Of a stretch of DNA of 64,000 nt, positions 6,202 through 61,432 are shown in pieces (the first letter of the stretch is position 1; the number at the start of each line of letters is the position of its first letter). The stretch lies in assembly GCA_000092065.1 (NCBI GenBank), contig CP000581.1; one strand, given 5' to 3'. Under the pieces are notes generated by a model. The model made no database searches and was not told the DNA's origin. It saw only the letters and a program-made list of their open reading frames with translations. The stretch is from Ostreococcus lucimarinus (taxonomy: Eukaryota). The translations under genes were made by a program, and so were the position numbers.

Positions 6202-6305
6202 GTGCGCGACGCGACGACGCGACGACGTTTCTCTGAATCGCTGCGTGAGAATCTCAATCAGCGTTTCCAACCGTGACTGACGCGCGCGCCTCGCGTGACG
6301 CACAG
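6202..6305 (+). other. spliceosomal intron in the 5' leader upstream of the Tfb4 gene
   Basis: 5' splice site G|GTGCGCGAC at about 6202, the same as the ALAD and PWWP introns. Branch point ACTGAC at about 6276. AG at about 6305. Confidence 0.45.
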
Positions 6306-19758: not shown

Positions 19759-20883
19759 TTAGTCGACGACTTTTACGCGCGGACCTTTTGCCCAAGGATT
19801 ACTCCTCTTGTAGTACCCGCCCACATACACGATTTCCGGTTTCGGCGGGGGCGGCTCTTCGATCTGTTGCTGTTGCGCCTGAGGCGCTTCGAGCAAGCGA
19901 CGACGTTCGGTGTCTTCGCGTTCTTCGGATTTCGGCGGCGCGACTTCTACTTGGACGACGGGTTCAGGCTCCAGTTCGGCGATTCGTTCGGGCTCTGGTT
20001 CTGATTCCACGACCGGTTCGATCGCACGCGGCTCGGGCGACGGTTCCGGTTCTGGTTCGCGAACGTCAGGCACCGGTGGGAGTTCGTCGACGGCTTCGGC
20101 GATGTCGATCGCTTCGTCTCGCGCTTCCTCCTCGACTTCGACTTTGCGCGCGTCCTTCTTCCCACCGAAGCGTGAAAATAAACCTCCGATGAAACCTTCA
20201 TTGCTATCGTCCGCGTCTTCGTCGGCGTCTTCGACGAGTTCCATCGCACCTTCGACGTCGGCGGCGGTCTCGTCCGTCGGCTCGGCCTCCGTCGGCTCCG
20301 CCGTGGACGCCGCCGTGGGCGCCGCCGCGGCCCAGTCCTCGACGGACGCGTCTTCGTCCGCGGTCTCGACGACTTCAACCGCCGCCGCGGGCGTTTCCTC
20401 TTCCTCGACCGTTTCGACCGTTTCGATCGTTTCGACCCAATCCACCGCCGAGGCTTCGACGTCGTTCGAATCGTCCGCCGCCGCCGCCGCCGCCGCCTCG
20501 GGCGCGTCTTCACTCGCGTCCGCGTCCTCGACCTCCGTCGCGCCGTCGCTCTCGACCGCGGCGCCTTCCCTTCCCTCGTCCTCGTCCTCGAGCGCGTCCG
20601 CCGCCGCCGCCGCCGCCGCGAGCTCCCGCATCACCGCCGCCGCGTCGTCCTCGAACGCGTCGCGCGCGTCGTCGTCCTCGTCCTCGAGCGTCGTCGCCGC
20701 GTCGTGCGTCGCGCCTTCGAATTCAAAATCGCCCCGCGGCTCGTCGACGACGTCGTCCTCCACCGCGTCCAACCACGCGTCGTCGAACGCGCGCGCGCGC
20801 GCGACGCGCGACGCGAGGCACGCGCACGCGCACGCGAGCGCGAGCGCGAGCGCGCGTCGACCGCGCGACCGCGCGCGCGACAT
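19759..20883 (-). CDS. hypothetical secreted highly acidic (Asp/Glu/Ala/Pro-rich) protein
   Basis: Start at internal ATG giving MSRARSRGRRALALALACACACLASRVARA (signal-peptide-like). Then long acidic low-complexity sequence with PEPEP repeats and a basic C-terminus. The upstream half of the listed 694-aa ORF is antisense to the next gene. Confidence 0.3.
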   Translation of the reverse strand: MSRARSRGRRALALALACACACLASRVARARAFDDAWLDAVEDDVVDEPRGDFEFEGATHDAATTLEDEDDDARDAFEDDAAAVMRELAAAAAAADALEDEDEGREGAAVESDGATEVEDADASEDAPEAAAAAAADDSNDVEASAVDWVETIETVETVEEEETPAAAVEVVETADEDASVEDWAAAAPTAASTAEPTEAEPTDETAADVEGAMELVEDADEDADDSNEGFIGGLFSRFGGKKDARKVEVEEEARDEAIDIAEAVDELPPVPDVREPEPEPSPEPRAIEPVVESEPEPERIAELEPEPVVQVEVAPPKSEEREDTERRRLLEAPQAQQQQIEEPPPPKPEIVYVGGYYKRSNPWAKGPRVKVVD

Positions 20884-20934
20884 CGTCCGGCCGTCGCGAT
20901 GTGCGACCGCGACCGCACGCACGCGCGCGCGCGA

Positions 20935-22537
20935 CATGTCGCGCGCGAGCGCGTCCGAGAGCCTGCGCGCGCTCGCGCGCGATTGTCTCGTCGTTCCCGG
21001 GACGCCCAGGTGCGACGGCGCGCGACGGCGCGCGATGATGGATTCGCGCGCGGGCGCGCTCGGTCGACTGACGACGACGACGCGACGCAGCGAAGACGCG
21101 GCGACGGCCATCCTGCGCGCGCACCCGTGGCGGGACATTTTCGAAGCGCTCGAGCGCGCGTCGACGACGGACGGCGGCGAGGAGGACGCGGCGGCGGCGC
21201 GAGCGCTCGCGAGGAAGCTCGGCGAGACGCGCGCGGGCGTCGACGCGCTCGCGCGAGCGTTCGACGAAAACGACGCGACGTTCGCGATGCGATTCGAGAG
21301 AGGGTTCGAGGACGCGGAGACGGTGGAGACGGCGTGCGCGCTGGTGCGAGGGGTGTACGAACGGGCGACGATGGAGGAGGGGGCGCGCGCGGCGGCGGCG
21401 GCGACGCGCGCGGCGACGACGCGGCGGTGCGGAGAAAAGGATACGGGAACGGCGATCGCGGCGAGCGGGGCGCTGTTGGCGCTGTGCGCGCGGTTTCCAG
21501 AGATGCTGGAAGATGTTTTAGGGGATGTGCTGGAGGAGACGTCGCGGGAGGGTGGGACGAGCGAGGCGAAGGTGCGCGGTTTGGCGTTCGCCGCGAGCGC
21601 GGCGGCGGCGAACGAGGACGCGGCGAGCGTCGTGGTGAAATCGGGCGCGCTCGACGCGTGCGTGCGTGAGATTGATGGTCCGGATTTATTATCGTCTCTC
21701 GCGTCGCTCGAGATTCTCGCCGAAGTCGCGGAATCGTCCTCCGCGGCTGCGAGAGGGTTGAAGAGCGTGGGGTCGCTGGGCGACGCGCTCGTGCGGGCGA
21801 CGCTGGACGAAACCGCGGACCCGGCGCTCCGCACGCGCGCCATGATCGTCGGTGCGAGAATCGCGGCGACTTGCGCGACGAGCGATGAGGCGCTCGTTCA
21901 GGAGATGGCGCGCGTGCTGACGGCCCAGGAATCGAATTTTCGCGACGCCGTCGTCGACGCCGCCGGCGAGCTGTGCTTGACGAACGCGATCGTCGCGACA
22001 AACTTTGTCAAGACGACGAAGACCGTCGTCTTCACCGCGGCCGACAGCGCGCTGCGAGGACGCGGCGAGTCGCAAGTGGTCGCATTGCACGCGTTGGCGA
22101 ACGTGTTCGGCGCCGAACGAGGCGAACAAGAAATCCTGGACGACGAAGCCGAGTCCATCCTCGCCGACGCGATTTTCGCCGCGTGCGGCTCAAAATCTTT
22201 CGGCGACATCATCTCCACCGCCTTGGCGAACAAGAGCGACCATTTCGTCAACCTTCGCGTCGCCGTCTATCGCCTCCTGTCCACCGCGGGCCATCGCGCG
22301 CGTTTCGCCGAGGAAATCGCCGCGCATCCCTCCGCGCGAGACGCCCTCGCGCTCGACGTCGAGCCCGCCCTCGTCGCCGCGCGCGCGCGTCGCCGCGCGC
22401 TCGCCGCCCTCGCCGACGCCGACATCGCCGACGCTCGCGCGCGCGACCTCTTTCGCGTCGCCGCCACCGCGTCGCCGCGCGCCTCGACCTCGCGTCCGAG
22501 CGCCGTCCCGGACGTCCTCGCGTCCCATCGCCAGTAG
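20935..22537 (+). CDS. hypothetical alpha-helical (ARM/HEAT-like) protein
   Basis: Start taken at ATG MSRASASESL; the listed ORF 5' region is antisense noise. It has alpha-solenoid character and may be PSMD5-like, but no firm family assignment. Confidence 0.3.
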
Positions 22538-22546
22538 CGTCGCCGC

Positions 22547-22580
22547 GTCAAACGTCAAATGTCAAACGTCAAATGTCCAC
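22547..22580. repeat. short tandem repeat (GTCAAAYGTCAAA)n in the intergenic region
   Basis: cgtcaaacgtcaaatgtcaaacgtcaaatgtcc. Confidence 0.6.
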
Positions 22581-22643
22581 ACCGCGCGAATCCCGCGATT
22601 CGCGCGACGCGCCGTCGTCAGCGCGCGACGCCCGCCTCTCGCG

Positions 22644-24608
22644 ATGCGCGCGAGCCGCGGGGACATCAAGCCCGAGCTCGACGACGATAATCCGTGCGTG
22701 CGACGACGCGAACGCGACGACGCGCGCGAACCGACGACGAAAGAGACGCCGCCGCCGCCGCTGACGACGGACGACTGACGACGCGTTTCGACGGACGCAG
22801 CGTCGTCGAGACGATCCCGGTGTACTTTAATCGCCCGCCGGACGATGGCGGAGAGATGGTTCTGATTCAGGTGCGAAAACCGCGCGGAAAGCGCGCGCGA
22901 GACGCGCGCGAGGCGAGCGAGAGAGCGATCGATGGGGACTGACGAGACGCCGCGACGGCGACGAGGAACGCAGTACCCGCTGCGACCGCCCGATCGGCCG
23001 TACGACGTGGCGAACGTGGAGAGCGTGCGATATAAACCCGATGCGGCGAAACTAGAGATGACGATGCCGATCGAGGAGAGCGAAAGAAATCGAGACGAGG
23101 ACGCGGCGGAGCACACGCGAATTTCTTCGCTGCTGTTGACGAGCTCGAGCGCGAAGGCGGAGGCGCACGGAGACGGAGTGGTCGTGGGCACGATACATAA
23201 CGGGGCTATGTATTTGACGCCGATCGAGGCGGTTTATCAGATGCGACCGAGTTTACAGCATTTGGACGCGGCGGATAGCGCGAGGCAACCGCACGACGCG
23301 GCGCGAGAGGAGCGAGAGTTGCAAGAGGAGGAGGAACGCATGCTGCTGCCTCTTCAGGTGCAAGTGCGACGACGAGAGACGGCGAAACAGACGGAAATGC
23401 GAGTGCAGTCGCACGCGTTTTTGCGGCAGCGTGAGCACGAGGAGGCATGGATTCCGTTGCAGCCCTCCATGCCGGGAGATGCGGATACAGAGTTCGTCAA
23501 GGCGTACGTGACGACGACGCACGGCGAGTCGTGCGGACAGGCGGTGACGGCGAGAGAATACCTCGACGTCATGTGCCCTGTGAGCGGAAGCAAACGCGTC
23601 GCTCCCGAGGACGAAAATGCCAACACTTTGGGCGATGGAACTGGGTTGAGCAAGTCTCAGCTCGCGTCTCTGCCGCTCGATAGACGTATTCGAGCGTTGT
23701 TCGCCAAGGGTCAAAAGTCGTGCATGAAATTTAGCAGGATTCGTCAATTCGTGACGGAACCCATAGAGCCTGAACAATTGATCGCGGTGATTCAAGACAG
23801 CGCACACTTGGTGCAAGGTAATTGGGTGGCCAAGTCCACGCTGCGGTGCGGTGGGAACGTGACCTGGGAAAACATGCGAGACTCGGCGCTCTTTCAGTTC
23901 GCGCGTTCGCGCAACGTCAAACCAGAGTTGGTATCCAACTGTTTGAAGCGTAACAGCACAAAATCGGATCCAACGTTGGCAAAGATGCGTCGCGAAGTTC
24001 TCGCAGAATTCTCTCGTCCTCGAGGTTACGGTAGCGCAGCAGATGGTTTCGAGTTCAACGAAGCCACCGACGAGGCGTTCGAAGCAGAATTCCCCGACGT
24101 CGTCTCGCGAGAGATGGAATCGTGGCTCGCCTTGGCGCCATCCCTCGACATCACGTTGCTCACCAACGAATTGACGACGCCGAGCGTACCGCCACACGTC
24201 TCACAAATTCGCCTCACCACCGTTCGCTCGCTCGTGTACGCGAAGTTTGAGAAGAGGACCCACCTGAGCTTGGCGGACATTCGCGCGTTTTTGCTGACGC
24301 AAGCCCCCGACGTCGCGGCGTGCGCATACTTTCGACAAGCCGAACTTCTGGGGATGTTCGACGGTGATATCGCGTGCATCGAGGGTATTTGCGTTCTGGT
24401 ATCCGTGAACGACCCCGCGATCGACCCTCTTCGCAGGAAAATCTTAGGTTTGCTCTACAAGCAGAGCGGCGTTGTCAAGCGTTCCGAAATCATGGACGCC
24501 CTCGGCGACGGCGCGCCCAGTCAGCACACCTACACCAAAGTCCTCTCAGACTTGTGCTCATCGAAAGGAAGCATTTGGACCATTAAGGCGGCGGAGGAGA
24601 TGAGGTAA
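22644..24608 (+). CDS. RPC5: DNA-directed RNA polymerase III subunit Rpc5 (POLR3E/Sin-like), three exons: about 22644-22693, 22801-22870, 22974-24608
   Basis: The spliced N-terminus MRASRGDIKPELDDDNP|VVETIPVYFNRPPDDGGEMVLIQ|YPLRPPDRPYD matches the human POLR3E N-terminus (DDPVVQEIDVYL...LFQYPVRP). Further in, AMYLTPIEAVYQMRPSLQHLD matches LHLTPLHGILQLRPSFSYLD. Both introns show GTGCG 5' splice sites and ACTGAC branch points. The track ORF starting MGTDETP begins inside intron 2; its ACTGAC is the branch point. Confidence 0.6.
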
Positions 24609-60349: not shown

Positions 60350-61432
60350 TCACGCAAGCTCGTCGTCGAGACCGCGCACGAGGAGCATGAACCACAGAGC
60401 GCTCGTGAAACTCTTCTCTTTAATCGTCATCGTCAACGCGCCGGCGAGGACGGTTTTCACGAGCTGCGCGTCGAGACCTTTGTACATACCACTCACGCCT
60501 TCTTCTCTGTGCACTCGCTTGAGCGTGCCTAATAGCGAACGTCTATCTTCCTCGCGCGTTCCCGCCTTTTGCAAAACCTTGGCGCGCACGAGAGGGTACG
60601 TCAGCATCGTCGCCGTCGCCTTGGACGCGGCGCCGAGGACAAAGGCGTCAAACATCGACAACTCCACGACGGGCTTTAAGATCCCACGCCGCTGCGCGCG
60701 AGCGTTGTGCACGATCATCAACTTTTGACGAAGTTGCTCGAAGACGGTGTATTGAATCGCGGGATTGATCGTCAGCGCGAGTGAAGCGCCGAGACCGCTA
60801 TACAATCCGCCGCGCGCGTCGGCGGCGCCTCGTCCGCCTCGCAACGCTCGTAAAGTGTTTTTGAACCCATCATCGCCCTCGTCGTCATCGAACGCCTTTG
60901 AGCCAGTATCACCGACCGTTTTCTTTCCTTCCAGTTGTTTCCGCGTCGTGTACGTATCTAAAGGCTCCGTGACGAGCACGTTACAGCATCCCGCCGCCGC
61001 CGCCGCCGCGAGCGTCGCCCCCACCCCAATCTTTTTCCCCGTTCGCTCCTCGTACGTCCGCTTCAGCGCGCTGAACGCTAAAAAGTACAAAAAGCTCGAC
61101 GAAAGCGAATGTGCCGACTTCGCCAACGCCCCACCGTACGCCCCCGCCGCGCCTTCCTCGCGAAACACCCGCGCCAACTTTGTCACCCACTGGGGACACC
61201 AAAAACCGTTACCGTCGTCGTCGGCTTCCGAGTTGTTTCCGCGCGCCGCGCTCTCGGCCTGGATCCGCGTCTTCACCGTGTCGATCGGGTATAACGCGAG
61301 CGTGCCGAACAATCCGCCGAGCGCGCCTGCGAACGCGCGCGTCGTCGTCAGTCGCGCGGTTTCGTCGGAAGCGATCGAGCCGTGCGAACGCGTCGAGCCG
61401 TCGAGACGCGCGCGGCGCGACGCGAGACGCAC
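60350..61432 (-). CDS. mitochondrial carrier family (SLC25) protein, possibly a peroxisomal/adenine-nucleotide carrier type
   Basis: Three carrier repeats: AGALGGLFGTLALYPIDTVKTRIQ, a second PxD/ExxK-type, and AGALTMTIKEKSF. The first signature is close to PMP34/Ant1-type YPLDTVKTRLQ. Confidence 0.6.
   Translation of the reverse strand: MRLASRRARLDGSTRSHGSIASDETARLTTTRAFAGALGGLFGTLALYPIDTVKTRIQAESAARGNNSEADDDGNGFWCPQWVTKLARVFREEGAAGAYGGALAKSAHSLSSSFLYFLAFSALKRTYEERTGKKIGVGATLAAAAAAGCCNVLVTEPLDTYTTRKQLEGKKTVGDTGSKAFDDDEGDDGFKNTLRALRGGRGAADARGGLYSGLGASLALTINPAIQYTVFEQLRQKLMIVHNARAQRRGILKPVVELSMFDAFVLGAASKATATMLTYPLVRAKVLQKAGTREEDRRSLLGTLKRVHREEGVSGMYKGLDAQLVKTVLAGALTMTIKEKSFTSALWFMLLVRGLDDELA

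Follow-up and report, generated by a model that had tools for sequence, protein, structure and literature searches.

Where does the gene for RPC5, a subunit of RNA polymerase III (Pol III), begin in Ostreococcus lucimarinus? The window analysed here, by which we mean the whole stretch of 64,000 nucleotides (nt) taken from contig CP000581.1 of assembly GCA_000092065.1 (GC content 61%), carries a mechanically called open reading frame (ORF) at 22932-24608, the product of which has 558 amino acids (aa), begins with MGTDETP and matches the RPC5 family (POLR3E; C37 in yeast). A preliminary description of this DNA had claimed that the start of the ORF lies inside an intron and that the N-terminus of the protein is encoded by two short exons located further upstream. 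Our analysis leaves very little doubt that this part of the window holds the 5′ end of a nuclear RPC5 gene, which is arranged as three exons, with its ATG at 22644 and a product of 584 aa.

The three-exon model and the RPC5 family match

All features of the model lie on the plus strand. As read from the sequence and its translation, exon 1 (22644-22693, 50 nt) starts with the ATG at 22644 and encodes MRASRGDIKPELDDDN, followed by CC, the first two bases of a proline codon, and so ends in phase 2. Intron 1 (22694-22800, 107 nt, phase 2) has GTGCGTG at its 5′ splice site and CAG at its 3′ splice site; its branch-point motif GACTGACG occupies 22773-22780, and 22 nt separate the branch A (22778) from the 3′ splice site. 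In exon 2 (22801-22870, 70 nt), the first C finishes the proline codon and is followed by codons for VVETIPVYFNRPPDDGGEMVLIQ; that the proline at the exon 1/2 boundary is specified by a split codon (CC|C) is a refinement of the preliminary description. Intron 2 (22871-22973, 103 nt, phase 0) carries GTGCGAA and CAG at its 5′ and 3′ splice sites, respectively, and the same branch-point motif at 22937-22944, the branch A at 22942 being 31 nt from the 3′ splice site. Exon 3 (22974-24608) holds the remaining RPC5 coding sequence, from YPLRPPDRPYD to the TAA stop codon, and its frame is that of the mechanical ORF. Because exons 1 and 2 together amount to 120 nt, the reading frame is kept, and joining the three exons yields the 584-aa protein. 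Read-through of either intron, in contrast, encounters stop codons, and neither intron length is divisible by 3.

The ATG of the mechanical ORF (22932-22934) is located inside intron 2 and is not the start codon of the gene. The codons ATG GGG ACT GAC (22932-22943) run directly into the branch-point motif, the ACTGAC of which lies at 22938-22943, just as the preliminary description had it. We conclude that the 558-aa ORF is an artefact of reading a eukaryotic gene continuously, the ATG being positioned directly upstream of a branch-point motif.

In the model that we propose, translation would start at the ATG at 22644, and two U2-type spliceosomal introns would be removed to join 22693 to 22801 and 22870 to 22974. 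Both introns belong to the class defined by GTGCGTG, GACTGACG and CAG, which is typical of the genome outside chromosome 2. Exons 1 and 2 encode about 40 residues, consisting of an acidic DDDNP, then VVETIPVYF, and then a segment ending in LIQ that would be joined to YPLRP. These residues correspond to the conserved N-terminus of the RPC5 domain, which pairs with RPC4/C53 in yeast and human Pol III. RPC5/C37 and RPC4/C53 form a TFIIF-like heterodimer on the Pol III lobe by means of an N-terminal dimerisation module (PMC7747717, PMC10404625 and PMC3592421). We infer that the approximately 40 residues from exons 1 and 2 are the start of this module, and that a protein initiated at 22932 would be deprived of a conserved part of it.

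The spliced protein matched the Pfam RPC5 family (PF04801) with a score of 326.5 bits over profile positions 1-425 of 429, the cut-off, which is the curated gathering score, being 23.1. The 558-aa ORF product scored 299.1 bits, and its match covered positions 25-425. Since the spliced match begins at position 1 and that of the ORF at position 25, the two small exons supply the first 24 profile positions. The 14 residues with which the 558-aa ORF opens (MGTDETPRRRRGTQ) lie outside the RPC5 profile match, which begins at ORF residue 14. A search against solved structures aligned residues 4-443 of human RPC5 (7a6h_M) with residues 13-444 of the spliced protein (E=1e-29), and yeast C37 was aligned with the same protein at E=1.5e-8. 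At the N-terminus, human EEDDPVVQEIDVYL...LYLFQYPVRP is matched with DDDNPVVETIPVYF...MVLIQYPLRP of the spliced protein, and the human segment that begins at residue 4 and pairs with the spliced protein from residue 13 onwards is EEDDPVVQEIDVYLAKSLAEKLYLFQYPVRP. The motif made up of an acidic stretch, VVxxIxVY/F and LxQYPLRP is found only in the spliced model, where it matches human residues 4-35, and it recurs in homologues from Mesostigma, an MMETSP transcript, a land plant and Pyramimonas. The preliminary description, which had joined 22693 to 22801 and 22870 to 22974 and had likened the resulting N-terminus to that of POLR3E, was exact in its coordinates and its peptides, and the likeness holds now that the profile match reaches its first position and the human protein is aligned from residue 4.

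Conservation and splice signals

The homologue search placed the sequence in Ostreococcus, the O. tauri protein (cluster representative P0002) having about 78% identity over the shared part. We compared the locus with that of O. tauri (L001) and with the metagenome contigs L002, L003/L004 and L005, which together with the window represent five Ostreococcus lineages. In each of the four other lineages, RPC5 lies between a Proteasom_PSMB-like gene and mL59, the latter being on the opposite strand and followed by an actin-family gene. All four keep the two short exons and the positions of both introns, while the length and the sequence of the introns drift. The exon 1 motif M-x(3-5)-RG[DE][IV]KPEL[DE]DDNP is retained in L001, L002, L003 and L005, and in every lineage exon 1 ends with DDN-CC directly before a GT[AG][CA]G donor. 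Intron 1 of the relatives is 105-160 nt long, ends with YAG and is followed by (P)VV[ET]T[IM][PA]VYFN...[LV][LIV]Q. Intron 2, which is 94-153 nt long across Ostreococcus, has the form GT[AG]CG...CTGAC...YAG and ends immediately before YPLRP. The branch A is 21-32 nt from the acceptor in all 10 introns, of which nine have ACTGAC and one (intron 1 of L003) has GCTGAC.

Exon 1 had a mean pairwise nucleotide identity of 0.81, and exon 2 and the start of exon 3 had one of 0.70 each. The values were lower for introns 1 and 2 (0.56 and 0.55) and for the upstream spacer (0.56), the shuffled baseline being 0.49. This pattern is the signature expected of coding exons that are separated by unconstrained introns. 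Two Micromonas-like loci, L006 (GC 0.70) and L007 (GC 0.61), have intron 1 at the identical position and in the identical phase (AACCC|GTGCGT), and therefore intron 1 is older than the genus Ostreococcus. At the intron 2 site, these loci (L006 at about 1606-2010, L007 at about 1130-1500) have contiguous coding sequence (CTTCAG TACCC); hence, of the loci compared, only those of Ostreococcus have intron 2, which was either gained there or lost elsewhere.

According to Irimia and Roy 2008 (PMC2483917), the O. lucimarinus introns outside chromosome 2 that were confirmed by expressed sequence tags (ESTs) have the atypical 5′ consensus GTGCGTG, with ACTGAC in 87% of them and the extended GACTGACG in 66.5%, and the median length of predicted introns is 111 nt. 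Judged by this consensus, intron 1 agrees with GTGCGTG at seven of seven positions and intron 2 at five of seven; both carry GACTGACG, and their lengths of 107 and 103 nt are near the median reported there. Neither intron is mentioned individually as EST-confirmed in the text of that paper that we could read. The pattern GTGCG-N(50-80)-ACTGAC-N(12-40)-CAG was found six times in the window, both introns included, when 0.52 matches were expected from shuffles. The six matches fall into five distinct stretches, two of the matches being nested in intron 1 (donors 22694 and 22698). This excess, and the 27 bits that splicing adds to the Pfam RPC5 score, sustain the statement in the preliminary description that the resemblance was above chance.

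Other places in the window have the same intron-like shape. An 81-nt segment at 21010-21090 (plus strand) runs from GTGCG through GACTGACG to CAG and lies in frame inside the mechanical ORF 19910-22537; it probably represents an intron near the 5′ end of the Proteasom_PSMB-like gene located upstream, and the first ~1 kb of that ORF is likely to be noncoding on the plus strand. The segments at 6202-6305 (plus strand) and 61327-61432 (minus strand), which display the GTGCG, ACTGAC and CAG signature, may be introns of further genes.

Transcript-type evidence and competing models

A protein search with the spliced N-terminus identified P0079, a 63-aa ORF that runs through exon 1 and exon 2 and then into intron 2. 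It is encoded by L008 (ENA ERZ4843228 NODE_7669), a contig of 1483 nt with a coverage of 4.7. L008 corresponds to window positions 22199-22693 joined to 22801-23788; the lengths are equal, and there are five differences, three of which are a 5′ GGG. Intron 1 is, therefore, removed to the base. L008 begins inside the coding region of the upstream gene. Either it is a read-through transcript with incomplete splicing, or it is an allele from which intron 1 has been lost, and in both cases it marks 22694-22800 as an intron. The three unmatched G residues at its 5′ end would fit complementary DNA (cDNA) synthesis by template switching. A profile search also retrieved a transcript peptide of Micromonas bravo (MMETSP1401), MAAEDALRDEDGDNPVVRRIPVFFNRARAADQTLCVLQYPLRP..., reading ...DGDNP|VVRRIPVFFNR..., and its splice junction coincides exactly with the position of the orthologous intron 1 in the genomic locus L006.

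To compare the model with its competitors, we enumerated all combinations of ATG, GT and AG between 22538 and 23010 that have zero to two introns of at least 35 nt and a stop-free join to exon 3 (n=646), and scored them with a hidden Markov model (HMM) built from non-Ostreococcus homologues only, namely those of human, Mesostigma, an MMETSP transcript, a land plant and another green alga. The three-exon model ranked first with 69.4 bits, whereas the ORF-only model ranked 142nd with 37.2 bits; none of the alternative N-termini scored better. Exon 2 and intron 2 are as proposed in all 12 of the top-scoring models listed. First exons starting from the ATG at 22559 or 22573 were rejected in spite of near-equal scores, as their peptides are unconserved in the relatives and their donors are off consensus. 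The donor at 22698, the second GTGCG within intron 1, was likewise rejected, since an exon from the ATG at 22644 to this donor, joined to 22801, breaks the frame (54+70 nt).

Whether the N-terminal residues encoded by exons 1 and 2 fold into the domain was addressed by an AlphaFold2 prediction for the spliced protein, based on an alignment of 18 sequences. The best Foldseek matches of the resulting model were human Pol III chain M (E=6e-20) and tWHD1 (7asu), the latter with a TM score of 0.80 and a root-mean-square deviation (rmsd) of 2.4 A. The predicted local distance difference test score (pLDDT) was below 50 at residues 1-29, 31-36 and 42-47, and the fold match therefore does not bear on the part encoded by exons 1 and 2.

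Several of our observations weigh against the three-exon model. L008, from which intron 1 is missing, retains intron 2, and if the contig is derived from cDNA, then some transcripts keep intron 2. Scans of the JGI metagenome contigs gave 0 matches, both for sequence across the two spliced junctions and for a 24-mer across junction 2 (22870/22974). The distant homologues separate exon 1 only weakly, the runner-up first exon scoring 68.2 bits as compared with 69.4 bits. Finally, given the low pLDDT (the means of 10-residue blocks are 30-49 over residues 1-50), the AlphaFold model says nothing about the N-terminal fold. No cDNA-derived Ostreococcus protein that spans junction 2 was listed in a word index that is non-exhaustive and shows cluster representatives only, so that this result is not evidence of absence. 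Of the transcript support by which the preliminary description proposed to check its junctions, transcript-type evidence was thus obtained for junction 1, from L008 and from the orthologous transcript of M. bravo, but none was found for junction 2. It is comparative and family evidence only that points to the predicted junction 2, whereas the choice of exon 1 rests on conservation in Mamiellales, on the donor consensus and on L008.

One explanation for the structure of L008 is that intron 2 is often retained, through either regulation or inefficient splicing, in which case a sizeable share of the transcripts would encode only a 63-aa peptide, read from exons 1 and 2 up to a stop codon in intron 2, or would give rise to an RPC5 that starts at 22932 and is truncated at its N-terminus. 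The contig does lack intron 1 while containing intron 2, the ORF called on it (P0079) is exactly the 63-aa product, and the 5′ GGG is compatible with a cDNA origin. If this were true, intron 2 retention would switch off full-length RPC5 or give a truncated form from 22932 without the first conserved segment of the RPC4-binding module. We regard frequent retention as quite improbable, because L008 is a single contig of low coverage (4.7) that could also be an incompletely processed pre-mRNA, a chimera assembled from cDNA and genomic reads, or a genomic allele without intron 1, because the branch motif of intron 2 is the complete GACTGACG and its donor is GTGCG, and because the exon 2/exon 3 junction is in frame across five lineages. 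Intron 2 is presumably spliced efficiently in vivo. That L008 reflects real biology, being either a natural allele in O. lucimarinus populations that precisely lost intron 1 (an intron presence/absence polymorphism) or a product of regulated intron 2 retention, is also quite improbable.

Another explanation is that the continuous ORF is the real gene, with its start at 22932, and that the upstream "exons" are chance resemblances. The ORF is indeed uninterrupted from 22932 onwards, and its own score of 299 bits lies above the Pfam RPC5 threshold; its 558-aa product is found on 525 contigs in public metagenome catalogues, where IMG names it RPC5, and the O. tauri protein OUS42752.1 uses the equivalent start. 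The catalogue entries, however, were produced by ORF-style gene callers run on metagenome contigs. The 14 residues ahead of YPLRP are unconserved in every relative, and the corresponding segment has stops or is in another frame in the other lineages; the ATG at 22932 is located in a segment that diverges like non-coding DNA (identity 0.55); and the ORF lacks the profile positions 1-24 that the spliced model supplies. Together with the rank of 142 among the 646 models and the use of the spliced model by RefSeq for both O. lucimarinus and O. tauri, this makes the continuous ORF very improbable as the real gene. The first exon might also be a different one, such as that extending from the ATG at 22573 to a donor at 22614 and joined to an acceptor at 22800, with exon 2 and intron 2 unchanged. 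This is the model that scores 68.2 bits with the distant-homologue HMM, but nothing equivalent to its peptide MSTPRESRDSRDAP is encoded at the other Ostreococcus loci, all of which keep RG[DE][IV]KPEL[DE]DDNP (the Micromonas-like loci keep DNP), and the donor (GTCGTC) does not fit the GTGCGTG consensus. Moreover, L008 joins 22693 to 22801, and the RefSeq protein begins with MRASRGD, both of which are contrary to a first exon at 22573. We consider this alternative to have next to no likelihood, and the three-exon model with its ATG at 22644 is the one that we retain below.

Neighbouring features and comparison with known RPC5 proteins

The RPC5 ATG is separated from the upstream stop codon (22535-22537) by a 106-nt spacer. 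A perfect 14-nt tandem repeat, GTCAAACGTCAAAT x2.2, which can also be read as a 7-nt unit CGTCAAA, is situated in this spacer at 22547-22577. Its AT content exceeds that of the flanking sequence, and it could act as a promoter, a terminator or a polyadenylation element. Further upstream, at 19759-22537, long mechanical ORFs of 694 aa (minus strand) and 875 aa (plus strand) overlap on opposite strands, which indicates that the length of an ORF alone is no evidence for a gene in GC-rich DNA.

The gene model that we reconstructed is correct but was already known. An exact look-up showed that the 584-aa spliced protein is identical over 584 residues to XP_001415474.1 / ABO93766.1, a "predicted protein" of O. 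lucimarinus CCE9901, and UniRef100_A4RQY9 bears the name DNA-directed RNA polymerase III subunit RPC5. Given this identity and the GT-AG introns, the RefSeq model must have the same two junctions; there is no difference between the models, and our reconstruction matches RefSeq. The identity also means that the window comes from strain CCE9901 or from one that is nearly identical to it. The exons that the preliminary description had called hidden were, thus, missed by the prokaryote-style ORF track but were present in the reference annotation. The three-exon N-terminus is also that of O. tauri XP_022838199.1 / CEF96623.1 (585 aa), which reads MVGVARGDVKPELDDDNP / VVTTMPVYFNRVLPQSREGLALVQ / YPLRP. 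At the O. tauri locus L001, the introns are at the same positions and measure 160 and 94 nt, and exon 2 has one additional codon. The 585-aa protein comes from the re-annotated O. tauri genome, for which RNA-seq is reported to have validated 89% of all introns (PMC4378021). A second O. tauri entry, OUS42752.1 (548 aa, MRFEQYPLRP...; L001 3001-4647, GCA_002158475.1), differs in that its initiating ATG is located inside intron 2 and both 5′ exons are missing.

The finding is of little biological import, since the gene encodes a housekeeping subunit of Pol III and its two introns are ordinary. What it does show is that a reader without tools can arrive at a correct eukaryotic gene model from splice signals and a known protein motif. 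It also bears on data quality, as ORF-style calling on picoeukaryote DNA yields a truncated RPC5 of 558 aa that starts in an intron, and this truncated form has spread over hundreds of catalogue contigs and into one O. tauri annotation.

In comparison with the proteins of known structure, the algal RPC5 resembles human POLR3E/RPC5 (7a6h chain M and others) in its N-terminal motif and, outside the residues of low pLDDT, in its predicted fold, with an identity of about 24% in the structural alignments with the top human chains. Yeast C37/Rpc37 (5fj8 chain M) is shorter than the algal protein and matches the dimerisation part alone. The algal RPC5 has a C-terminal extension, residues ~270-584, and it is this extension that matches human tWHD1 at the TM score and rmsd given above; its match with tWHD2 (7asv) is weaker (probability 1.0, E=3.6e-3). 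According to the paper that describes the human Pol III structure, this winged-helix architecture "appears to be found exclusively in metazoan RPC5" (PMC7747717).

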